In this document: piece after piece, positions 3,335 through 15,422 of the stretch | Layout of the letters: every line of letters begins with the position of its first letter | Position numbering within the stretch: position 1 is the first letter of the stretch | Source: Thermoplasmatota archaeon | Lineage (GTDB): Archaea; Thermoplasmatota; JAKEGO01 | Assembly (NCBI GenBank): GCA_028279595.1 | Contig: JANQNK010000001.1 | Coordinates: 69,016-133,015, forward strand | Length of the DNA stretch: 64,000 nt | Direction of reading: 5' to 3' | Notes under the pieces: generated by a model | Databases searched by the model: none | What the model was told of the DNA's origin: nothing | The model's input: the letters and a program-made list of their open reading frames with translations, nothing else | Position numbers and translations under genes: made by a program

Positions 3335-4921
3335 ATGTTTATCCGTATGAGGGTCCTGGGCATCGGGCTGCTGCTCGCGATATCTGTTCTCACGTTATTT
3401 ACCGGCGCTTCGGAAGCGACCGTCGATGTCGGATATATCGATGTCATCGGAGGAGCACAGATCATCGATCAGGACGAGATCGCCGAGTACGACGTCTCGA
3501 TGGATGTCGAGGTGACGAACGGTTCAGCAGATGTTTCCGCGACGATATCGGAGGCCACCGACGGCTGGACCGCATGGGTCGACGAAGGCGGGAACGAGAT
3601 CACATGGACAGGTGTTAACGAATCCGGATACCTCAACTTCACCCTTTACGTACAGCCTCCCGAAAGGGCAGGCTCGGAAGCGCTCGTCCTCGACATATGG
3701 GCGAACTCGACGGATGGAAAGGACGAGGCGACATCGCTGTCGACGTTCGTCAATGGCCATTCGATAGAGGTGACCTTTCCGGCAGACTCGATCAAGGTCA
3801 GTCCCGAGGAGGGAGAAAATATCGAGACGGTCCAGTTCGAGGTAGAGAACACCGGCGATTCTCCCGACGACATCAAGGTGACCGTGGATCAGGACCCCGG
3901 TCCAAACCCGGGCAATCTCGATTGGGTCGATATCTCCTACGAAGAGCTCACCGGTCTCGGTCCGGACCATACGATCCAGGACATGAAGACAGATGTCATC
4001 GAGCTCGTGCATGTCGAGTTCGACGTCGGAAGTGTTCCGATCGATGCAGCCACTGGAAATTACACCTACATGATAACTTTCGACTGCGTCCCCGGCAATC
4101 CCGAGGATCCAGGGATAATCTTCACCCATTACCTTACGCTCGTGGTCGACAGGGTCGCCGGAATGTACGTCGAGTTAAACGAGACCCAGGCAGAGATCGA
4201 CGTCGGCGCGCATATCACCGATGACCACGCCCTCGTGGACATCATGGTCCAGAACTCGGGCAACTTCAACGACACGTTCAAGGTACAGACGTTCGCGACC
4301 TCCGCCGATGTCGACATCTCCTTCGACGACAGGGGTGACCCCGCCGAATTCGCCATGCGATCGGGACTGACGCGGACCATTCAAATGAAGATTACCGTGG
4401 ACCCGAGGACCCGGGGGGGAATCGAGGAGTTCGTCATCAGGATATCCTCTGCCGAGGGCGGGTTCGTCAACGAGACCGATTTCAATCTTACAGTGCTGGG
4501 ACCGGACATCCGGTTCACGAAACATGACATTCAAATGGTAAATCCTGAACCGGGAACAGGGGAGGACAAGGTGTTTCGAGTCCGCGTATGGAACAATGGA
4601 ACCTCGCCCGCCACGGACCTCAAGATCAGCTACTACCAGGGAGGCATCCTGAAAGGGAACTACACCATCGACTTCCTCAGGAACGGCAGGTACGAGGACG
4701 TCATCTTCGATTGGGACGGCAAGGACAGGTCCCGGTGCAGGTTCCAGACCGAGGGTGCAATGCCCGAGGAGCTCAATATCAGGTTTGATTTCGTACGTGC
4801 TCCGGAAGAAGAGATCAAGAGAGACCAGCTGGGTGCCTTACTCCAGATCGCAGCCGTCGGCATCATCGCTGGCGTCGTGGTGATGCTGTACTACCACCAC
4901 TACCTGAGCTGGAGGTTCTGA
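3335..4921 (+). CDS. surface (glyco)protein: signal peptide, CARDB/COG1470-like beta domains, C-terminal TM anchor
   Basis: N-terminal hydrophobic signal (VLGIGLLLAISVLTLFTGA). Repeated F.VEN.G....D beta-sandwich motifs and a CARDB-like VRVWNNGTSPATDL block. Many N-x-S/T sequons. C-terminal TM AAVGIIAGVVVMLYY. Paralog of 5008..6651. Confidence 0.7.
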   Translation: MFIRMRVLGIGLLLAISVLTLFTGASEATVDVGYIDVIGGAQIIDQDEIAEYDVSMDVEVTNGSADVSATISEATDGWTAWVDEGGNEITWTGVNESGYLNFTLYVQPPERAGSEALVLDIWANSTDGKDEATSLSTFVNGHSIEVTFPADSIKVSPEEGENIETVQFEVENTGDSPDDIKVTVDQDPGPNPGNLDWVDISYEELTGLGPDHTIQDMKTDVIELVHVEFDVGSVPIDAATGNYTYMITFDCVPGNPEDPGIIFTHYLTLVVDRVAGMYVELNETQAEIDVGAHITDDHALVDIMVQNSGNFNDTFKVQTFATSADVDISFDDRGDPAEFAMRSGLTRTIQMKITVDPRTRGGIEEFVIRISSAEGGFVNETDFNLTVLGPDIRFTKHDIQMVNPEPGTGEDKVFRVRVWNNGTSPATDLKISYYQGGILKGNYTIDFLRNGRYEDVIFDWDGKDRSRCRFQTEGAMPEELNIRFDFVRAPEEEIKRDQLGALLQIAAVGIIAGVVVMLYYHHYLSWRF

Positions 4922-5007: not shown

Positions 5008-6651
5008 ATGCGTGTCTGTTGGCGAATCGCGTTTGGTTTGATGTCGATCTTAATCCTTGTTACGTTCCTTACTGGAGCGACCGAGGGTAGTGTCGATGTC
5101 ACAGGTATCGATGTCGAAAAAGGAACAATTTGGATAGGATCGCACGAGGTCGCGACCTTCAACGTCACCATCAACATCACAGCCGACGGCGGAGAGGCCG
5201 ACATCTACGTCAACCTCTCGGACGAGCTGGCCGGATGGAGCTCATGGGTCGAAGGATCCGATGACTCCCACGTCTTTGAGAACGTCAGCACGACCCAGCA
5301 GATAATATTCAACGTGATCGTCGACCCCGACTCCGAGGCCGAGGAGGACGACCAGAGCACCACCGACATCTCGGTCCAGTCCTCGAACGGGACGAACAGG
5401 TTGAGGACCGTCAAGACAAAGATCAGAGGGTATTCAATATCTGTCGCATTTCCCACGAACAAAACGAAGGTAAGCCCTGTGGAGGGGGACAATAACGAGA
5501 CACTACAGTTCGATGTAGAGAACACGGGCGATGGACCGGACGACATCGAGATCAGGATATCAGAGACGCCTGGCCTCGAGGGCTCGGACATCGAGCCTGG
5601 TGAACTCAATTGGATCAGCTCCATAGGCCCATTTGACGACAAAGCGAACGGAACTTCCTACCTTTTCGAAGACCTGGAGGCCAATACTCCTCAGACGGTA
5701 TTCCTGGAGTTCGACGTTGGCACAATACCCGTCGATGCCGAGGCTGGTGAATATTCCTTCATGGTGCACATAGAATCGAAGGGAGCAGCTCATGGGGATC
5801 CCGATGCAAACGAGTATGTCAATATCACGTTGGAGATCGAAAAGGTAGCCGGTTTCGAATGGACCATGGACATGGATGATGGAGAGATCGACCCCACCGG
5901 TCTCGACAAACAGGATGAAATCGATGTACCAATAACCATTCACAACCAGGGTAACTTCGATGATGCATACAAGGTCGAGACCGTGGGTCTTTCCCCTGAC
6001 GTTGATGTGATCTTCGGATGGCATGATACAAATCCCGCAACATTTAATATCGATTCAGATCAGGAAGCGGTAGTAACGATGGTGATTACAGTTGATGAGG
6101 ACATACTCGAGGGTTGGAACAATTTCACTGTTCGAATATCCTCTTCGGATGCTAGTTCTGAGACAAGAAAATTCAATCTATCCATCCTTGCCCCCGACAT
6201 CAAGATCGCCGACAATGACATCACACTTTCCGAAAACGTTACGGACATTGAGGAGAATGACGATGTCCTCGTTCACGTCCGCATTTGGAACAACGGTTCA
6301 GGTCCAGTAGAGGATCTCGTGATCAACTTCATCGTTGGTAGTACATGGGTGGACAACGTCACGATCGAGGAAATCGGAGCTGATCGGTGGGAAGACATTG
6401 ATTTCAACTGGACCATCGGGAACACCACCGACCAGACGATAAAGATCCAGACGGACGGTGCCAAACCGGACGAACTGAACGTCATCAAGACCTTCAGCTT
6501 CCCAAAGATCGTTGAGGAAGAGCCAGAAACCCCTGAGGACGACGAGGAAGACAAGGGAGGATTGACGGCGACACAGGCCGGGGTCGCTGGACTGCTGGTC
6601 ATCGTTGTAGTGGTCGTGGCACTGTTCTTCCTGATGCAGAGGAAGAAGTAG
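5008..6651 (+). CDS. surface (glyco)protein, tandem paralog of 3335..4921
   Basis: Same architecture and collinear motifs (VAFPTNKTKVSPVEGDNNETLQFDVENTGDGPDDIE vs VTFPADSIKVSPEEGENIETVQFEVENTGDSPDDIK; VHVRIWNNGSGPVEDL). C-terminal acidic linker, TM segment and RKK tail. Confidence 0.7.
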   Translation: MRVCWRIAFGLMSILILVTFLTGATEGSVDVTGIDVEKGTIWIGSHEVATFNVTINITADGGEADIYVNLSDELAGWSSWVEGSDDSHVFENVSTTQQIIFNVIVDPDSEAEEDDQSTTDISVQSSNGTNRLRTVKTKIRGYSISVAFPTNKTKVSPVEGDNNETLQFDVENTGDGPDDIEIRISETPGLEGSDIEPGELNWISSIGPFDDKANGTSYLFEDLEANTPQTVFLEFDVGTIPVDAEAGEYSFMVHIESKGAAHGDPDANEYVNITLEIEKVAGFEWTMDMDDGEIDPTGLDKQDEIDVPITIHNQGNFDDAYKVETVGLSPDVDVIFGWHDTNPATFNIDSDQEAVVTMVITVDEDILEGWNNFTVRISSSDASSETRKFNLSILAPDIKIADNDITLSENVTDIEENDDVLVHVRIWNNGSGPVEDLVINFIVGSTWVDNVTIEEIGADRWEDIDFNWTIGNTTDQTIKIQTDGAKPDELNVIKTFSFPKIVEEEPETPEDDEEDKGGLTATQAGVAGLLVIVVVVVALFFLMQRKK

Positions 6652-6653
6652 TA

Positions 6654-7688
6654 TCAATCTCCGAAGACACCCTTGATCTCATCCGCCTTCAGAACACCCT
6701 TCTCGGTGATGAAGCCAGTGATATACCTCGCAGGAGTGACGTCAAATGCCGGATTGCGGGCCACTGCGCCCTCCGGACCGACTCGCAAGCCTCCCCACTC
6801 CAGTACTTCGTCCTGAGACCGCTCCTCGATTGGAATGGCGTCTCCGGATTCGGCGGTGGGATCGAACGTCGTCGCGGGAGCGGCGATGTAGAATGGGATA
6901 CCATTCTCATGTGCAACGACAGCCTTCTCGTAGGTACCGATCTTGTTAGCGGCATCGCCGTTCATCGCGATCCTGTCGGCACCAGTTATTACCATGTCGA
7001 CCTCGCCCCGGGACATGAAGTGTCCCGCAGCGTTGTCCACGATTATCGCGTTGGGTATCCCTTCCATCCTGAGCTCCCAGGCCGTCAATCTGGCACCCTG
7101 GTAACGGGGCCGGGTCTCGTCGACGAAGACATAGGGCTTCTTGCCATGGTAATGGGCGAACCTTATCGGTGCGAGCGCCGTTCCCCAGTAAACGGTAGCT
7201 AAAGCCCCGGCGTTGCAATGAGTGAGTATCTTCATATCCTTCGAGATCAGCTCGGCACCGGTCTCTCCGATGGTCCTGCAGGCCTCCTCGATCTCAGAAG
7301 CGTAATCTATCGCTGCCGCAACGGGGTCCTTCCCCGATGTCCAGACGTCAGCTATCCTGTCGACCGCGGTGAAGAGGTCCTTCGCAGTTGGACGGCTCGC
7401 TTCGAGCTTCTCTTTGGCTTTATCCATGTCAACGCCATTGACGTATGCAAGTGCCATTCCGTAGGCTGCGGCGATACCGATGGCGGGAGCTCCCCTGACC
7501 ACCATATCGGTTATGCTGGCCGCAAGCTTATCGACGCTGTGGATATTCTCGAAGACGAAGTCGTGCGGCAGCATCCTCTGGTCGAGCATGACGATGTGGT
7601 CGTCCTTCCACTCAACTGCCAAGGGGACCTTCTGCTCGGGAGCCGTCATGGTGATGTGAACGGTCTGGCGATACTTTACACTAACCAT
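6654..7688 (-). CDS. mtnA: methylthioribose-1-phosphate isomerase family protein (eIF-2B alpha/beta/delta-like)
   Basis: MLDQRMLP, MVVRGAPAIGIAAAYG, THCNAGALAT, VDETRPRYQGARLTAWEL and GADRIAMNGDAANKIGTY blocks. The exact substrate (MTR-1-P or a ribose bisphosphate) is not decidable from sequence alone. Confidence 0.8.
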   Translation of the reverse strand: MVSVKYRQTVHITMTAPEQKVPLAVEWKDDHIVMLDQRMLPHDFVFENIHSVDKLAASITDMVVRGAPAIGIAAAYGMALAYVNGVDMDKAKEKLEASRPTAKDLFTAVDRIADVWTSGKDPVAAAIDYASEIEEACRTIGETGAELISKDMKILTHCNAGALATVYWGTALAPIRFAHYHGKKPYVFVDETRPRYQGARLTAWELRMEGIPNAIIVDNAAGHFMSRGEVDMVITGADRIAMNGDAANKIGTYEKAVVAHENGIPFYIAAPATTFDPTAESGDAIPIEERSQDEVLEWGGLRVGPEGAVARNPAFDVTPARYITGFITEKGVLKADEIKGVFGD

Positions 7689-9599: not shown

Positions 9600-10470
9600 A
9601 TCTACGGGTGCTGAGTGCACCCCATCCCAACTTCTCATAATGCTCAGGGCATATAAACCTTTCCTATGAAATTCTAAGGAAAACGGCAATTCTTTTATAT
9701 AAGAAGTTAAAACTCGGGCGAAAAGTGGTCAAACCGTCATTTCCGGTGGAATCTACTTATGAAATGGCTTGTCGAATTATCAATTTCAGTCTTCTCTACC
9801 CTGAAATTGCATGAACTTGAATAGATATCAAGGGTCATGCCAGTGGAAATTTCTGAATATCGGGCAATTGAATATGCGACAAATTTGTCCATATCAATAA
9901 TTGATAAACAATTTCAGTCTGCTGATACCTTACAGATTAAAGCCAATTGGTTAATCCTTGCATCAGCTTTGATCGCCTCTCTACTCAGTATCCAACAATT
10001 ACCAAATTCATTTCAACCTCACGTCACATTTTTCTCATTTTCAATCGTTGCCTTGATTTCCTCTATTATCCTCTCACTTCTTGCATCCTTTGGGTTCAGA
10101 TTCAAGTATATAATCCATCCAGAATCATTATGGGAACACGTCGATAGAAATGAATCGCTTGAGGAATTACAACTCCAGGTAATAGCAAATATTATCGACT
10201 CGTATGAAAAGAACCGGGTTAGCTTATTCAGACGAGACAGATACATTTCATATTCAATCATTGCTTACGTTTTCGCACTCTTATCGATGGGTTTATACTT
10301 GCTCGTTCCAATAATAGTGATAGCATGAAAAAGAAAAAGAACTCCATCCTACCTCAGGCAGATACAAAGCGTAGCTCAGAACTCATGAAAGCCGAAAGTA
10401 AGGATGATTAGATATGACATGAATTGACCTTTATTTTCTGCGATCATTAGTGAAATCTGTAAAATCTTAT
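9600..10470. other. AT-rich accessory islet
   Basis: Visibly lower GC than both flanks. Contains one 3-TM ORF plus a coupled micro-ORF. Confidence 0.5.
9837..10328 (+). CDS. small 3-TM membrane protein in the AT-rich islet
   Basis: N-terminal soluble helix ending in SADTLQIKANWLILASALIASLL, then a TM hairpin, a charged helical segment and a third TM. This architecture resembles small membrane effector families such as PycTM/SLATT; that resemblance is unverified. Confidence 0.5.
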   Translation: MPVEISEYRAIEYATNLSISIIDKQFQSADTLQIKANWLILASALIASLLSIQQLPNSFQPHVTFFSFSIVALISSIILSLLASFGFRFKYIIHPESLWEHVDRNESLEELQLQVIANIIDSYEKNRVSLFRRDRYISYSIIAYVFALLSMGLYLLVPIIVIA

Positions 10471-10496
10471 ATACCGACTTCAGCCTTCCTCACAGT

Positions 10497-11279
10497 ATGT
10501 TGAGGCCCAGGCCGACCACCATTCTCCAGAGGAAGGGCGAAGGCAAGGACATGGTCACGTTCACCCTGGACTACAGGGTCAAGGCCAAGCCGGGGAACTT
10601 CCTGATGATCTGGCTCCCCTACGACAGCAATGGTGAGAGGAACGACGAGATATCCGACGAGGTCCCGATGAGCATATCGAAGATCCGGAAAGCGAACCTG
10701 TCGTTCACCGTCAAGGCCGTCGGCCCGACCACTAGCGAAATGATCAAATTGAAGCCAGGCGACAAGGTGGGCGTCTCCGGTCCGTTCGGGAACAACTTCT
10801 CGGTGGAGGAGCGCAAGTCCTTGCTCGTCGGTGGCGGCGTCGGCACGGCACCGCTTATGCCAGTATATCGGCGAATGGTCGCCAGGGGCATAGATCACAA
10901 GTTCATAATCGGCGGAGCCACACGGGAGGACATCCCGTACCTGACCGTCCTTCGGGCCCAGGAGGACACCCACGTCTCGACGGAGGACGGCTCCCTCGGG
11001 ACCCACGGGAACGTGCTCCACGTAATGGAGGATTTCGAACTCGCGGACTTCGACGTCCTGTACAGCTGCGGTCCCATGCCCATGCTCAGGGCGATCTGGG
11101 ATATCGTCAAGGACATCGACATAGACGTCGAGATGAGCCTGGAGTCCTATCTCAGGTGCGGCCGCGGCCTCTGCGGCTCGTGCGCCAGGGGCAAGTACAG
11201 GATCTGCAAAGAGGGGCCTGTCTTTAACAGGAAGATGCTGGAGGAGGTAGGATTCCCGAAACCGGTAAGCGAAGAGTGA
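10497..11279 (+). CDS. PyrK-like FAD/NAD(P)-binding oxidoreductase with C-terminal 2Fe-2S cluster (dihydroorotate dehydrogenase electron-transfer subunit family)
   Basis: KPGNFLMIW, PGDKVGVSGPFGN, LVGGGVGTAPL and the C-terminal CGRGLCGSCA...C cluster motif. TATA-like CTTATATA about 25 nt upstream of the ATG. No pyrD or gltD partner in the window. Confidence 0.75.
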   Translation: MLRPRPTTILQRKGEGKDMVTFTLDYRVKAKPGNFLMIWLPYDSNGERNDEISDEVPMSISKIRKANLSFTVKAVGPTTSEMIKLKPGDKVGVSGPFGNNFSVEERKSLLVGGGVGTAPLMPVYRRMVARGIDHKFIIGGATREDIPYLTVLRAQEDTHVSTEDGSLGTHGNVLHVMEDFELADFDVLYSCGPMPMLRAIWDIVKDIDIDVEMSLESYLRCGRGLCGSCARGKYRICKEGPVFNRKMLEEVGFPKPVSEE

Positions 11280-11683
11280 GGAAGGGCAAGAAGAAGGAAG
11301 GCCCCTACGGTCTCCCGATGGTCCTCGCCAGAAAGGTTCCGGTCAGGGTTCCGGTCAAGACCGAGGTCCAGGACGACGAGACCGTTGTACTGATCTATCC
11401 GAAGGTATTCACCCGTCTGGAAGGCTGGATATTCCGTCGCGTCGGAGGGGTCTCCGACATCCGCAGACCGCTCGACGAGATGGGCACGGACATCTGGAAC
11501 CTCTGCGACGGTGAACACAACGTCGGAGAGATCTGCAAGATCATGCACGAGAAGTACGGGGAGGACCTCGAGCCTGTAGCACCCCGTTGCTGGACCTTCG
11601 TCAAGATGCTCTCGGACAGGAACCTCGTGCTCATCCTCCACAAGAAGGTCCCCCTGGAGAAGAAGGAGGAGAATGATGAGTGA
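11276..11683 (+). CDS. PqqD-family (RiPP-recognition-element-like) protein
   Basis: LDEMGTDIWNLCDGEHNVGEICKIMHEKYGEDLEPVAPRCWTFVKMLSDRNLV matches the PqqD pattern. GTGA overlap with the upstream gene; ATG at 11318 is an alternative start. Confidence 0.65.
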   Translation: MRKGKKKEGPYGLPMVLARKVPVRVPVKTEVQDDETVVLIYPKVFTRLEGWIFRRVGGVSDIRRPLDEMGTDIWNLCDGEHNVGEICKIMHEKYGEDLEPVAPRCWTFVKMLSDRNLVLILHKKVPLEKKEENDE

Positions 11684-11837
11684 GGAGGAGACGGTTCTCC
11701 TGTGTCCTCACTGTCTGAAGTCCAATCTGAAGGTCGTCGGCGGTTTCATGGGGACTCAATACCTCTGCAAGGATTGTGGGTATCAGGGTGCCTTGATCCT
11801 CGAGGTCGACGAGAAGGATGTTCCAGATCAGGATTGA
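11673..11837 (+). CDS. 54-aa zinc-ribbon protein (not in ORF track)
   Basis: MMSEEETVLLCPHCLKSNLKVVGGFMGTQYLCKDCGYQGALILEVDEKDVPDQD, with CxxC-x17-CxxC. The ATG overlaps the PqqD-like stop by 11 nt, suggesting translational coupling. Confidence 0.5.
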   Translation: MMSEEETVLLCPHCLKSNLKVVGGFMGTQYLCKDCGYQGALILEVDEKDVPDQD

Positions 11838-14425
11838 AGCTGTTTTAATTGGTCAGAGTATTGTTTCAATCTTCGCTTATCTCCACTTATAGAATAGAGG
11901 TTACATTTCTCTTCGAAAACTAGTTCAAGTGCTTTTTCATCATTAAGCTCACGAGCAATCTCTTCACCCATATTAAGAAATCGCTCTGCTATCTGATAAT
12001 CTCCTCTCATTGCGTAAAATGACCCATAACCAACCTTTGAATATATGAATCCTGAGGCAAAATGGACGTTGTAAAAGGTTCTCGTACTCTCCTTTAGATA
12101 TTCTAATGCCTTAGAAAAATCGCTTGATTCAATATAAACGCTGGCCAAATTATATTGCATTACTGCAGTTAACCGATAGTTACCTGTTGATAATCCTATC
12201 TCAATCCCGCGAATCCAATTTCGTTTCGCAGAATGCAAATCACCCTGTCTGTAATATAAACGTCCAACATAGTTCAATGCCTCTGCAAGATTGTATAATG
12301 CCCCTTCCTCTTCGAAAATTCGTGCAGCTTCAAGTGCACAATTGAGGTTTTCGTCAGTTATGAAACTTCTTGCCATCAGGACCTTTCCCTCAAGAATATT
12401 ATCCTTCTCTCCTTTTGCGAGAACAATGGCTTCTTTAAAGGCATCTTCACCTTGATCCTTCTTCCCCAATCGTGTGAACGCTTTCCCCTTCCAATGTAAC
12501 GCCTCTGCCCTATTCATAGGAGTAACAAATTCATTGTCAACTATTATTTCATCCATCATAGCAATACATTTGTCAAATTGCCCCTCGTAATAATATCCAC
12601 GTCCAATGATCATTTTACCCTTATATTTGAACTTATCATATTCGGATAGACTGTTGGACTCGATACTTTTAATAATTTCTTTAGTTTCATGATATTCTCC
12701 TAAGGATAAATGTGTTTCTAATCTGAATATATTGAAACGAGATAACCACTCAAGATCAATAACATCAACAAAATTCTCGATTATCTCCTGTATTTCACCC
12801 ACATATCCGTATTCAATAAATCGCGGTAAGAATTCATTTAACAATTCTATACCTTTTGAAAAGGATTTTCCATACATGTAGTGATAAAATGCTTCAACCT
12901 GATCTTCGAATCGAGATTCAGATAATGATTTAGCTGCTTCTATGTGAAGATCTCTCCTCATTGACTCAGGAATTCCTTCATAAATAACTCCACGAATCAT
13001 ATCGTGAAGAGCTATTTCACTACCTGTTTCAGCGATTAAAGATAGTGAAATTAATCGGAATAATATATCAATATCTTCTTCCGTTCTTGTAATTAAATCA
13101 ATGCTAATTGGTTTTCTATAAACTGCAACTTTACGGAGAAATGAACGCAAATCCGGAGAGAGATTATTCATAATCTCATCTTTTACATACGTTGATAAAT
13201 TCGAAGCCCCATCGAGTCCATCTGTCCCCCCTATTAGATCGATGGCAAGCGGATGGCCCCCAGTCACTTGATAGATTGTTGGATAATGAGAAGGATCAAT
13301 AATCCCTCTCTCCTCTAGCAGAGACTTCATTGAGGTGTAATCAATGCCACCAAGATGCATCTCATAAACCTTTTTTTCTGCGATCACGTCTTTTTGACCA
13401 TAGAATTCCGGACTCAACCTAGAAAGAACGCACATATGAAGGTCATCGGAACTCGATACAATTGTGAATATCATACTGATAAGTCGTTTGGTATCCTCAT
13501 TCGCTTTTTGATAGTCGTCGAATACGATAATAACATTTTCTCCGCTGAGATCTTCAGAAATAATTTGATGTACCTCCCAGAGGTCAAAGTGCTGTATCCC
13601 ATCTACATCTCCGTCGTGTAATCCAGCCTTGAGATAATCCATGAGTCGAGCCTTATTAATATCATTTAGAAACTTCGATAGGACGACTAATATACTTCGT
13701 GCAGAGTCCCATTCATGTATCGGGTAATAAATCGTTTCATAACCATAATAGGTGGATAAAAAACTCGATATTAATGACGTTTTCCCCATTCCAGGAAGGC
13801 CAATTATTACTATTGTGTTAGGTCCATTATCGATGAGATCTTCAAGGAGTCCCAACTCATTCTCACGCCCAACAATTTTGATTTCAGGTAAAGAAATATG
13901 GTGATTGATACGGCCAATTTCATCTATGACGGATTTTAAAGATATATTCTCAATAAGGTCTCCTTCAGTAACGATATTAGAGAATACTTTCTCAAACCTA
14001 ATAAAAAATTCAAATGTAGGAATTTCCGCTCCATATATCCTGTAAATCTGAGAAAAAGTCATGTGCTCTAGTGTTCCATCTTTTAATATTTGGAATTCCT
14101 CGTTATTTACTCTGGACGCGACTTCGTTCGCTACTGTATACCCTTCTGTTGATAAGAAATATACAAATCGAACGCGGCGCCCCCCCTCAATATTTGACTT
14201 TTTTTGCTCCACAAGGTTCATATGACGCAACTCTTTCAAAGCCCTTGAAGCATGATTCCATCGAATGCCGACCGATTCTGCAATACCTTCTTGGGTGATA
14301 TCATGAGGAAGACTTTTTACCACAAACTCCGCATCCATATCTATGGGGTCCAACATATTATCGATCGGGAAATCCAAGAGGAAGAACAAGACACGGTCCT
14401 TTACCGTTAGCTCTTCGAATGTCAT
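11828..14425 (-). CDS. STAND NTPase: N-terminal wHTH, NB-ARC-type ATPase, C-terminal TPR array (STAND-1)
   Basis: wHTH ITQEGIAESVGIRWNHASRALKELRHMNLVEQ. Walker A GLPGMGKTS, Walker B IIVFDDYQ, NB-ARC GxP motif TGGHPLAI. About 350 aa of TPR-like repeats. Gene is AT-rich. TATA-like TTTTATATATTAAAAG upstream of the ATG. Confidence 0.8.
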   Translation of the reverse strand: MTFEELTVKDRVLFFLLDFPIDNMLDPIDMDAEFVVKSLPHDITQEGIAESVGIRWNHASRALKELRHMNLVEQKKSNIEGGRRVRFVYFLSTEGYTVANEVASRVNNEEFQILKDGTLEHMTFSQIYRIYGAEIPTFEFFIRFEKVFSNIVTEGDLIENISLKSVIDEIGRINHHISLPEIKIVGRENELGLLEDLIDNGPNTIVIIGLPGMGKTSLISSFLSTYYGYETIYYPIHEWDSARSILVVLSKFLNDINKARLMDYLKAGLHDGDVDGIQHFDLWEVHQIISEDLSGENVIIVFDDYQKANEDTKRLISMIFTIVSSSDDLHMCVLSRLSPEFYGQKDVIAEKKVYEMHLGGIDYTSMKSLLEERGIIDPSHYPTIYQVTGGHPLAIDLIGGTDGLDGASNLSTYVKDEIMNNLSPDLRSFLRKVAVYRKPISIDLITRTEEDIDILFRLISLSLIAETGSEIALHDMIRGVIYEGIPESMRRDLHIEAAKSLSESRFEDQVEAFYHYMYGKSFSKGIELLNEFLPRFIEYGYVGEIQEIIENFVDVIDLEWLSRFNIFRLETHLSLGEYHETKEIIKSIESNSLSEYDKFKYKGKMIIGRGYYYEGQFDKCIAMMDEIIVDNEFVTPMNRAEALHWKGKAFTRLGKKDQGEDAFKEAIVLAKGEKDNILEGKVLMARSFITDENLNCALEAARIFEEEGALYNLAEALNYVGRLYYRQGDLHSAKRNWIRGIEIGLSTGNYRLTAVMQYNLASVYIESSDFSKALEYLKESTRTFYNVHFASGFIYSKVGYGSFYAMRGDYQIAERFLNMGEEIARELNDEKALELVFEEKCNLYSISGDKRRLKQYSDQLKQLQS

Positions 14426-14573
14426 GATTGCTGTATGTTTCTTTTAATATATAAAATTTCCTTAAGTAAGATATAAATTACGCTATGTAATTTAGTACAA
14501 GCCGAAACACCGCATTTTCCTATCCAGATAATAGATTTTTCGACCTTTGGGGGGGGGAGGAGGTGTAAGACAT

Positions 14574-14636
14574 ATGCCAGGAAAGTATGGACTACTCGTA
14601 AGAATGGAAAGCTTGAAAGAGATCGGGAGGAACTGA
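14574..14636 (+). CDS. micro-ORF A, 20 aa (MPGKYGLLVRMESLKEIGRN)
   Basis: Preceded by a G9 run plus GGAGGAGGTG SD, 8 nt before the ATG. Paralogous to micro-ORF B, with conserved residues encoded by different synonymous codons. Its stop overlaps the SD of the next gene. Confidence 0.5.
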   Translation: MPGKYGLLVRMESLKEIGRN

Positions 14637-14649
14637 GGGGGTTTTGCTT

Positions 14650-15345
14650 ATGAATGGTAGAATACTCGCTACTATAGCATTGACCAGCCTCCTTGTGTTG
14701 TCGTTGACTGTGATCGCGACGCCGCCCGAGGCGAAGAGGTGGGCGCTCATTGTGGCGCCTGAGCATGAAGGTGGAACGGTATACGAGGATGCCCTCGATA
14801 TGTACGACTATCTGAAGGATGAGGGATGGACCGATGATGAGATTATCTTCCTGACCGATGGATCCGAGGAGAGTTTCGTTGATGGTGACGCATCGGCTGA
14901 AGAGATATACGCAGCTTTCAGTCATCTTGCATTAAACGTCAATTCCATCGACACTGTTGTGATTGTCTTAGGTGACAATGGGGCATTCGGAACTGAAGAT
15001 TTCTATCTCATCTCATCTGACGATATTCAGATCTCGAGTTGGGATATTGGTCTTCAGCTTGACGCAATAAATACCCAGGATATGGCTGTTGTTGTCTCGT
15101 TTGACTATTCCGGTGGCTTCATCGACAACCTCGCGGGCAACGACCGTCTGGTACTAACCAGCCACGGTATTGAGTCCACGTCAAGCAACGCCTACAATCT
15201 TGCGGATGGTCTGACAGAAGAGGATGCAGACGCGAACGAAGATGGTGTCGTCTCATTCGAAGAGGCACATAGCTGGGTAGCTGAAGAGATCAGTGGACAG
15301 TCTCCCCAGATAAGTGACAACATCTACGGAGAATTCACGATCTGA
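14650..15345 (+). CDS. secreted legumain/peptidase-C13-fold protein lacking catalytic His and Cys (pseudo-peptidase)
   Basis: Signal-like N-terminus ILATIALTSLLVLSLTVIA. KRWALIVA...YDYLKDEGWTDDEIIFLTD aligns by eye to legumain KHWVVIVAG...IPDEQIVVMMYDD. VIVLGDNGAFG sits at the FTDHGSTG position and VVVSFDYSGGF at the YIEACESGS position. The protein has no Cys. EF-hand-like DANEDGVVSFEEA near the C-terminus. SD GAGGGGG 8 nt upstream of ATG 14650; the ORF track uses TTG 14644. Confidence 0.7.
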   Translation: MNGRILATIALTSLLVLSLTVIATPPEAKRWALIVAPEHEGGTVYEDALDMYDYLKDEGWTDDEIIFLTDGSEESFVDGDASAEEIYAAFSHLALNVNSIDTVVIVLGDNGAFGTEDFYLISSDDIQISSWDIGLQLDAINTQDMAVVVSFDYSGGFIDNLAGNDRLVLTSHGIESTSSNAYNLADGLTEEDADANEDGVVSFEEAHSWVAEEISGQSPQISDNIYGEFTI

Positions 15346-15351
15346 GGTGAT

Positions 15352-15417
15352 ATGGTGAAGGGTAAGTATTCACATCTCGTGCATGCTGAGACTCTGAAGG
15401 AACTCGGCCTCAAGTGA
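15352..15417 (+). CDS. micro-ORF B, 21 aa (MVKGKYSHLVHAETLKELGLK)
   Basis: SD GAGGTGAT overlaps the stop of the C13-like gene. Paralog of micro-ORF A. Its stop lies inside the convergent hairpin shared with STAND-2. Confidence 0.5.
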   Translation: MVKGKYSHLVHAETLKELGLK

Positions 15418-15422
15418 GGCCG
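15405..15422. terminator. 7-bp stem / 4-nt loop hairpin containing the stop codons of both convergent genes
   Basis: cggcctc aagt gaggccg. Perfect stem, T-rich run follows on the plus strand. Confidence 0.45.

Follow-up and report, generated by a model that had tools for sequence, protein, structure and literature searches.

Enzymes of the caspase/hemoglobinase fold (clan CD) bind their substrates on a face formed by the C-terminal ends of their strands, and in animals the caspase clan includes pseudo-proteases (cFLIP). A bacterial counterpart has been described in the pseudo-orthocaspases, PF00656 proteins of cyanobacteria and phototrophic Alphaproteobacteria that typically carry Tyr/Ser substitutions, and the same survey of caspase (C14) homologues reported pseudo-variants to be absent from Archaea (Klemencic et al. 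2019, PMC6426788). In the present study we examined a stretch of 64,000 nucleotides from a Thermoplasmatota archaeon (GCA_028279595.1, contig JANQNK010000001.1, positions 69,016 to 133,015; hereafter the window), in which a gene at 14650..15345 on the forward strand encodes a small protein of Peptidase C13 (legumain) type, predicted to be exported and to have lost both catalytic residues. The assignment of this gene, referred to here as the pseudo-peptidase, draws on its open reading frame (ORF), an AlphaFold2 model, Foldseek and hhalign comparisons, amino acid composition and the ratio of non-synonymous to synonymous substitution rates (dN/dS). Like the pseudo-orthocaspases, its product is a prokaryotic clan CD protein in which the His/Cys dyad is replaced, the predicted fold is unchanged and the role is presumably non-proteolytic; unlike them, it is C13-like, archaeal, exported, has Asn and Asp at the two catalytic positions, and is tied to signal transduction ATPases with numerous domains (STAND) and to micro-ORFs. 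Because the domain is not PF00656 and the host is archaeal, we regard it as an analogue rather than a member of the pseudo-orthocaspases.

As a single query the pseudo-peptidase returned nothing useful from Pfam, NCBIfam or the PDB, and a word-indexed search yielded only five close homologues. When 1.84 billion representatives were searched exhaustively with phmmer, 175 relatives were recovered at E ≤1e-3, among which small, exported proteins of C13-like type that lack the catalytic Cys form at least 56 clusters (50% identity). PF01650 (Peptidase_C13) was matched by 16 of the 50 aligned relatives and PF00656 by four. To avoid circularity, a near-family profile was built from the 14 closest relatives only, 13 of which are without the catalytic Cys; against the PDB it matched Arabidopsis metacaspase-4 (E 1.6e-7) and legumain (E 1.5e-3), and hhalign aligned it with human legumain, the sequence of which was checked against the PDB, at a probability of 89% (E 2.1e-6). 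Six of the 14 near relatives match PF01650 at E ≤1 and one matches PF00656 (E 0.02), the window protein itself matching neither model. Two relatives (P0010 and P0016), which match the window protein at E 8.5e-27 and 2.5e-19 in phmmer, exceed the PF01650 gathering score with 26.8 bits (cut-off 22.8). By Pfam, the lineage is nearer to C13 than to C14.

The AlphaFold2 model of the pseudo-peptidase (predicted local distance difference test, pLDDT, 94.9; predicted template modelling score, pTM, 0.88) comprises a six-stranded sheet between helices, and its top Foldseek matches in the PDB all belong to clan CD, namely Yca1, legumain, metacaspase-9, GPI transamidase and MALT1 (probability 1.00, template modelling (TM) score 0.54–0.71), with E values of ~1e-7 to 1e-8 for the first four, including 2.7e-8 for the yeast metacaspase Yca1 and 5.3e-8 for human legumain (TM 0.65–0.68). 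Matches of this strength, in profile and in structure, are well outside what chance would produce. Profile searches, model and Foldseek therefore agree with the legumain/C13 fold named in the original prediction, which had proposed HMMER/HHpred and structure comparisons, and the three collinear blocks it had aligned by eye (KRWALIVA/KHWVVIVA, GDNGAFG/TDHGSTG and VVVSFDYSGGF/FYIEACESGSM) were reproduced by hhalign of the 14-relative profile. We conclude from sequence and model that the protein has the caspase/hemoglobinase fold and lies on the prokaryotic branch of Peptidase C13. Its resemblance to legumain (C13, PF01650) extends to the collinear motifs KxWAxIVA, IxFLxDx, xDxG after strand 3, xSGG after strand 4 and TxxxxES, and to export; in contrast to legumain, it has Asn and Asp at the positions of His148 and Cys189, no C-terminal LSAM prodomain, and an EF-hand loop which legumain lacks.

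Both positions of the catalytic dyad could be placed in alignments. The GDNG motif pairs with SGHG of metacaspase-4 and TDHG of legumain, which sets Asn110 (codon aat, 14977..14979, forward strand; residues are counted from the ATG at 14650) on the catalytic His (legumain His148), and SFDYSGGF pairs with SCHSGG of metacaspase-4 and EACESGS of legumain, which sets Asp152 (codon gac, 15103..15105, forward strand) on the catalytic Cys (legumain Cys189). An earlier assignment of Asn to the His position is thereby borne out, and of the two residues proposed for the Cys position, Asp or Tyr, the former stands and the Tyr register is ruled out, as hhalign and the hidden Markov model (HMM) alignment to metacaspase-4 agree on Asp152. 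In the model, Asn110 follows strand 102–108 and Asp152 follows strand 144–150, the ends of these two strands being where the caspase/hemoglobinase fold places His and Cys. The composition of the protein confirms the previous claim that it contains no Cys at all (count of 0). With Asn110 and Asp152 in the dyad columns, the pseudo-peptidase cannot act as a cysteine peptidase, and we consider the original argument to this effect sound.

The proposed survey of His and Cys in orthologues, like the other checks put forward originally, gave the predicted outcome, both columns being unconstrained in this lineage. Among relatives 30–68% identical, the His column is occupied by N/D/R/H/W and the Cys column by D/N/I/S/R/P, free variation of the kind expected once catalysis is no longer selected. 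Across all retrieved relatives 63 domains keep both residues, and of the short relatives (≤270 aa, n = 65) 56 are without the Cys and 16 without either residue. Since the His/Cys dyad that defines C13 and C14 was looked for and is absent, we do not regard the pseudo-peptidase as a functional member of either family; on sequence grounds it would be a divergent, non-catalytic offshoot of the prokaryotic C13-like branch that behaves as a clan CD pseudo-protease.

The gene is nevertheless maintained. Relative to the syntenic orthologue in locus L001 (68% identity; L numbers denote loci examined for comparison), dN/dS is 0.25 at a dS of ~1, compared with 0.07–0.17 for neighbouring housekeeping genes of the same pair, so that the pseudo-peptidase is more relaxed yet clearly under purifying selection, and its reading frame is intact in every orthologue. 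These values point to a pseudo-enzyme kept by purifying selection, not a decaying gene.

Several other variants of the dyad were observed in the wider family. A group of 31 representatives of ~320–350 aa (P0039, P0063, P0065, P0073, P0081 and others) keeps the His (GHG) and has Ser in the Cys column (A-S-[AS]-S-G-G-F); a C-terminal extension aligns as a common block, 23 of the 31 are without any Cys, and the group may be a form of the C13 fold that uses a serine nucleophile or, alternatively, a further lineage of pseudo-enzymes. In a sister clade of exported proteins of ~248 aa (P0009, P0011, P0016, P0155–P0165; L014, L015, L016) the His is kept (LDHA), Pro occupies the Cys column, and an invariant Asp-Cys, in the columns of Ser171-His172 of the window protein, ends the following strand. 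The gene of this clade adjoins threonyl-tRNA synthetase in L014 and L015, with nearby same-strand duplicates at 6335–7132 and 8001–8798 of L015. A scan of the representative-genome collection returned one distant relative only, a Methanomassiliicoccales protein with three domains that keeps His and Cys (L004, 8144–10792; CP070739.1, a metagenome-assembled genome); this exported protein of 882 aa has three tandem C13-like domains, all with both residues, in the motifs FDHG…QQC[FH]SGGF (twice) and KDHG…MACFAGEF. Of two metagenome scans, the first was empty and the second returned one uninformative 1.8-kb contig.

The ORF ending at 15345 encodes 231 aa from the ATG at 14650 and 233 aa from an in-frame TTG at 14644. 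The length of 233 aa given originally thus reflects a real ORF extended by two residues from the TTG; the ATG is the likelier start, because every orthologue begins at the equivalent Met (MNGR/MIGK), which is the start in all five close homologues. A signal-like N-terminus had also been claimed, and the first residues (14650..14721, forward strand; MNGRILATIALTSLLVLSLTVIA then TPPEAKR) fit a signal peptide or N-terminal membrane anchor, with a hydropathy (KD19) maximum of 2.44 and a modelled helix at residues 2–20, followed by VIA/TPPEAKR. A hydrophobic N-terminus occurs in nearly all short relatives, many of which continue with A-x-A and then T/E. The sequence has no lipobox, there being no Cys, and no C-terminal anchor. 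We predict that the domain is exported, with a putative signal cleavage, or is held outside the cell by a signal-anchor. The protein is very acidic, with 45 Asp+Glu against 5 Lys+Arg; its mature part has a mass of ~22.6 kDa, a pI of ~4 and 45 Asp+Glu against 4 Lys+Arg, and the protein's 2.2% of basic residues is the lowest among the large ORFs of the window. Other large and very acidic ORFs are located at 3335–4921, 5008–6651, 55414–61023 and 61462–64000 (pI 4.05–4.2, 5–7% basic residues); one of them has 1869 aa, and they look secreted or surface-located.

The EF-hand-like loop noted previously was recovered as a predicted calcium-binding loop of canonical type, D194–E205 (DANEDGVVSFEE, 15229..15264, forward strand), the sequence of which (D194-A-N-E-D-G-V-V-S-F-E-E205) fits the 12-residue pattern D-x-N-x-D-G-x-V-S-x-x-E, with acidic or amide residues at positions 1, 3, 5 and 12, Gly at 6 and a hydrophobic residue at 8. 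In the model the loop is flanked by helices 184–189 and 203–213 in a helix-loop-helix arrangement. Pfam EF-hand models match 12 of the 14 near relatives at E ≤1 (best E 4.4e-4), the window protein scores 12.5 bits with EF-hand_5, under the cut-off of 25.9, and the near-family profile matches Entamoeba calcium-binding proteins (E 7.3e-5). The loop is also common in His/Cys-retaining relatives and is therefore ancestral to the prokaryotic C13-like branch, not an invention of the pseudo-enzyme. Metacaspases and orthocaspases (C14B, PF00656) share with the pseudo-peptidase the involvement of Ca2+ and provide its best PDB sequence match (metacaspase-4) and structure match (Yca1). They differ in having the His/Cys dyad and in that the calcium site of the pseudo-peptidase would be the EF-hand loop after strand 5 and not the metacaspase Ca2+ site; moreover, the window protein is exported, unlike the cytosolic metacaspases, and Ser150 stands in place of an Asp that, in metacaspases, precedes the Cys by two residues and is known to belong to the S1 pocket.

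Residues invariant within the clade include A36, P37, D70, D109, S150, G155, F157, S171, H172, N180 and Y182 in the alignment, and map at or just past the C-terminal ends of strands 1–5 of the model. From within the protein, the strongest case for a binding role is that the former substrate face, as judged from topology, is conserved despite the lost chemistry. Just past the strand that follows the Cys strand lies Ser171-His172 (15160..15165, forward strand), which defines a subclade of relatives carrying Ser-His at these positions; across relatives, the columns read SH, DC, SM or T/A according to subfamily. Together with Ser150 and Asp109, both residues are invariant across the Ser-His subclade (~33–68% identity), and the pair may be a ligand site, a metal site or an alternative catalytic pair.

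The pseudo-peptidase gene is flanked by two STAND regulators and two micro-ORFs, all four of which had been pointed out originally and are present. Micro-ORF 1 (14574..14636, forward strand; MPGKYGLLVRMESLKEIGRN, pI 9.7) is the first cistron and is preceded by GGAGGTG; micro-ORF 2 (15352..15417, forward strand; MVKGKYSHLVHAETLKELGLK, pI 9.4) is its paralogue, is preceded by GGTGAT and overlaps the 3' end of the second STAND gene by 8 nt. Both preceding motifs are Shine-Dalgarno-like. The peptides (GKYxxLVRxESLKEI) belong to a family of basic, hydrophilic sequences of 20–25 aa with the core GKYxxL[VI][RKH]x[EY]S[LM]K[EQ][IL], which has no match in Pfam and no signal sequence, and among short frames in all six frames of the window the motif [RKH]x[EY][ST][LM]K[EQ][LI] occurs only at the two micro-ORF sites. 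Peptides of this family, seen only beside the pseudo-C13 gene, recur in four further lineages and precede the gene in L001–L003, L005, L006 and L009, the last with two tandem copies. The copies lie at 9930–10004 and 10706–10768 of L001, ~1782–1853 of L005, 7889–7957 and 8815–8892 of L006, and 54–140 and 128–211 of L009; the downstream copy in L006 was found independently by the micro-ORF HMM (E 1.5e-4) and was not in the seed set. Substitutions between the window and L001 are mostly synonymous or conservative, with dN/dS of 0.07 for micro-ORF 1 (19 codons) and 0.23 for micro-ORF 2, both being small samples. The two micro-ORFs of the window are only 57% identical as DNA and have no long repeat in common, so their similarity lies at the protein level, and no cistron follows the downstream copies. 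Readings as DNA repeats or as a leader upstream ORF were rejected on the strength of this DNA identity, the synonymous or conservative changes and the lack of a cistron after the downstream copies. From their sequences we take the micro-ORFs to be coding small genes.

The micro-ORFs are on the same strand as the pseudo-C13 gene and tightly packed with it, including a stop/start overlap (ATGA) in L001. Micro-ORF 2 is in frame with the pseudo-C13 gene, with one TGA between them (…GEFTI*GDMVKGKY…), in both the window (15343–15417) and L001 (10694–10768). The downstream copy of L006 is 120 nt from the gene and out of frame, which argues against programmed read-through, the in-frame arrangement being probably a coincidence of close relatives. 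Upstream of micro-ORF 1, the AT-rich divergent intergenic region (14426..14573) contains TATA-like boxes read from the sequence (TTTTAATATATA and ATAATAGATTTTT), is conserved in L001 and may serve as promoter. At the other end, a GC hairpin resembling a terminator (15404..15423, forward strand), identified by consensus match only and found also in L001, lies between the convergent genes and would mark the end of the operon. A transcript running from micro-ORF 1 through the gene and micro-ORF 2 to the terminator, driven from 14426–14573, is likely on this layout.

STAND regulator 1 (11828..14425, reverse strand; 865 aa, GC 0.38) is divergent from the operon and STAND regulator 2 (15410..18229, reverse strand; 939 aa) is its convergent downstream partner, orthologous across loci. 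Pfam and NCBIfam searches give both the same architecture of an N-terminal winged helix-turn-helix (HTH), a P-loop NTPase (ATPase_2/AAA_16) and a tetratricopeptide repeat (TPR) sensor, and the two are 27% identical over their full length. ATPase_2 and AAA_16 score above cut-offs, TPR matches are many, and the HTH resembles HTH_Crp_2, Lrs14 and Sta1 with scores below their cut-offs. The layout of the window recurs in L001–L003 (68% identity to the window protein); L006 (~43–45%) has both STANDs, L005 (~42–45%) the downstream one only, L007 and L012 a convergent TPR-rich 3' end of a partial gene, L016 a STAND 2 kb away, and L010, L014 and L015 no STAND neighbour. Identity of STAND 2 to the other downstream STANDs is 32–38% for L005 and L006 (full-length), 29% for L007 (partial) and 24% for L016, against 27% to the upstream STANDs of the window, L001 and L006 (win_ST1up, L001_ST1up and L006_STup). 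Downstream STANDs are mostly 29–49% identical to each other, with a maximum of 49% between L005 and L007, and ~25–28% identical to the upstream ones. The closer relationship of downstream STANDs to one another indicates that their pairing with the pseudo-C13 gene is old and inherited. In each of the three lineages where the flanks are long enough, micro-ORFs and STANDs are equal in number (window and L001, 2:2; L006, 2:2; L005, 1:1). The pseudo-C13 gene is thus the centre of a conserved operon-like module, recognised from sequence, of one or more micro-ORFs, the gene itself, a further micro-ORF, a terminator and a convergent, orthologous winged HTH-STAND-TPR gene, often with a second, divergent one.

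Two described regulatory systems resemble parts of this module. MalT activates genes for exported binding proteins, and AfsR acts on a small ORF next to its own gene, afsS; as in STANDs of the MalT/AfsR type, whose sensors are TPR or superhelical (SUPR) repeats, the neighbours of the pseudo-peptidase join a P-loop STAND NTPase, a TPR-like sensor and a DNA-binding domain, the latter differing in being an N-terminal winged HTH and not a C-terminal LuxR or N-terminal SARP domain, with scores below the equivalog cut-offs. The RRNPP pairs of Firmicutes share the small ORF beside an HTH+TPR cytoplasmic receptor and the matching numbers of peptides and receptors (PMC10075063). Here, unlike in RRNPP systems, the receptors have a STAND NTPase, the host is archaeal and no export or processing machinery was identified; the micro-ORF peptides, being without a secretion signal, do not correspond to the secreted propeptide with export signal that characterises RRNPP.

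Taken as a whole, the observations are best explained, in a judgement we hold with slightly better than even confidence, by a selected, STAND-linked pseudo-C13 protein acting as a non-catalytic extracellular binder. A small and very acidic protein would be exported from, or anchored outside, the archaeal cell, keeping its C13-like fold and EF-hand loop, and would bind peptides or proteins in a Ca2+-dependent manner through the loops conserved on what was the substrate face. Transcription of the pseudo-peptidase operon would be controlled by the neighbouring STAND regulators, and each basic micro-ORF peptide may be the cognate small-protein partner of the TPR sensor of one regulator. The closest parallel would be the MalT regulon, where exported binding proteins are expressed under a STAND activator that responds to an internal ligand. 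The putative binding, scaffold or decoy role suggested in the original prediction is strengthened only indirectly, by the conserved loops and the link to STANDs and micro-ORFs. An OPT oligopeptide transporter near the L005 module fits the peptide theme and is no proof of it, and the same is true of the report that related sediment archaea live by degrading peptides (PMC6461988).

A number of observations weigh against this explanation. The hhalign columns of legumain Asn42, Arg44, His45 and Glu187, which make up the Asn-specific S1 pocket and third catalytic residue, hold Thr, Tyr, Glu and Ser150 in the pseudo-peptidase, so that the S1 pocket is for the most part replaced (Arg44 to Tyr, His45 to Glu, Glu187 to Ser150); E175-S176 possibly matches legumain E214-S215, in a by-eye extension beyond the end of the hhalign alignment. 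Extreme acidity is common to other likely secreted proteins of this genome and so is not specific evidence for the binding of basic peptides. The micro-ORF peptides, without a signal peptide, are probably in another compartment than the exported protein. Members in L010, L014 and L015 are without an adjacent STAND and distant members are without a micro-ORF (analogues sought around L007 and L010–L016 were not found, though some of these loci have STANDs), which indicates that the three parts of the module are separable. Finally, the invariant Ser150, Ser171, His172 and Asp109 could point to other chemistry rather than mere binding.

In one alternative the pseudo-peptidase would be a structural or adhesive surface protein, the STANDs and micro-ORFs forming a separate regulatory unit in the same variable island. 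The patchy composition of the region (GC 0.36–0.50 against ~0.60 in the flanks), the family members without a STAND neighbour and the similar acidity of other secreted proteins of the genome are consistent with this explanation. We consider it unlikely, as the orthologous convergent downstream STAND is kept where pseudo-peptidases are only 33–45% identical to the window protein, and the micro-ORFs are packed tightly on the same strand as the gene and occur nowhere else in the window.

A pseudo-peptidase might also serve as a decoy or regulator of active extracellular C13-like paralogues in the same or neighbouring cells, holding substrates or inhibiting the enzymes, for which cFLIP and caspase-8 provide the model of a dead domain pairing with an active enzyme. 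Legumains and metacaspases act as monomers, and control through caspase-type heterodimers is therefore not expected. The superfamily has many exported archaeal and bacterial members that retain His and Cys, such as the three-domain protein of L004, the fold and loops of the pseudo-peptidase are conserved, and sediment Thermoplasmatota have been reported with extracellular C13, C11 and C25 peptidases (PMC6461988). The window and the module loci compared, however, contain no active clan CD paralogue, and a decoy would leave the micro-ORFs and the STAND linkage unexplained, so that we judge this role to be improbable.

A third alternative holds that the protein is still an enzyme with relocated residues, for instance with Ser150 or Ser171 as nucleophile, His172 as base and Asp152 or Asp109 as acid, giving a serine-type or metal-dependent hydrolase on the caspase fold. 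The Ser and His of LTSHG had already been named in the original prediction as a candidate nucleophile and base. The invariance of Ser150, Ser171, His172 and Asp109 across the Ser-His subclade, their placement where the neighbouring strands 3, 4 and 5 end C-terminally in the model topology, the correspondence of Ser150 to the column of the legumain S1 residue Glu187 in hhalign, a second His (His39) in the closest clade, and the retention of H, C or M at the His172 position in sister clades are all compatible with such chemistry. Neighbouring Ser-His residues seldom make a dyad, however, and the Asp152 column reads D/N/I/R inside the Ser-His subclade, leaving no conserved acid there. Many relatives that keep His and Cys have a Cys at the 172 position (SC or AC), which suggests a structural or pocket role and not that of a nucleophile, and we know of no serine nucleophile in clan CD. 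A relocated active site thus seems quite improbable. A decaying pseudogene or mis-called ORF, which the failure of the single sequence to match any Pfam, NCBIfam or PDB entry and the loss of both catalytic residues might suggest, can to all intents be dismissed, being refuted by the intact frames of the orthologues, the dN/dS of 0.25, the very confident model, and the signal peptide and EF-hand loop conserved in relatives.

The surroundings of the non-catalytic binder proposed here were also inspected. Positions 9800–22400 of the window form a compositionally patchy island with flanks of GC ~0.60, in which low GC is found in the ORFs at 9837–10328 (0.37), 18804–20402 (0.36) and 21289–22419 (0.39) as well as in STAND 1 (0.38). 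The ORF at 18804–20402 is ORC/CDC6-like AAA and has no PADLOC match, and in the syntenic L001 the segment at 18.8–22.4 kb is replaced by a DEAD-box helicase and a Laminin_G_3 protein; the L001 locus carries the archaeal markers Trm56, Rpr2 and PurP-type DUF1246/1297. Directly downstream of STAND 1, a PqqD-like gene of 135 aa (11276–11683; of the type of the recognition element of ribosomally synthesised and post-translationally modified peptides, RiPPs) overlaps a zinc-ribbon gene of 54 aa (11673–11837). The pair is kept in L001 and L003 and absent from the L005 and L006 modules, and was accordingly rejected as a RiPP clue, lying outside the core. Divergent from STAND 2, a small winged-helix gene at 18060–18629 (13650–13985 in L001) is DUF6293_C-like by a weak match; as listed, this ORF overlaps the 5' end of STAND 2, and translation probably begins further downstream (the L001 copy has 111 aa). 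A viral-contig scan and tblastn searches of phages and plasmids gave no match, and PADLOC gave no defence-system match for the pseudo-peptidase gene, and readings as a mobile element or defence system were dropped in view of these empty searches. Rfam and tRNA scans of the window were likewise empty.

A bolder interpretation, which we regard as improbable and advance only tentatively, is that the cassette is an archaeal peptide-sensing or signalling module, in which each basic micro-ORF peptide would be the cognate ligand of one STAND receptor and the exported dead legumain-like protein, a relic of a signal-maturing protease, would be the peptide-binding arm outside the cell and would capture, present or sequester peptides in a Ca2+-dependent manner. 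If true, Archaea would gain their first described system of RRNPP-like peptide communication, with a pseudo-protease at its centre; neither the micro-ORF family nor the cassette was found described in the searchable literature. The analysis shows that small, exported proteins of C13-like type lacking the catalytic Cys have radiated considerably, with one archaeal clade that has lost both residues and is still under selection. New in this context is a conserved cassette with STAND/TPR regulators and previously unnoticed genes for peptides of 20–25 aa, and this cassette most deserves further study, since it offers a concrete candidate, open to testing, for a peptide-sensing or peptide-signalling system of uncultured archaea. 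The pseudo-peptidase itself would represent a natural case of a protease fold turned into a binding module.

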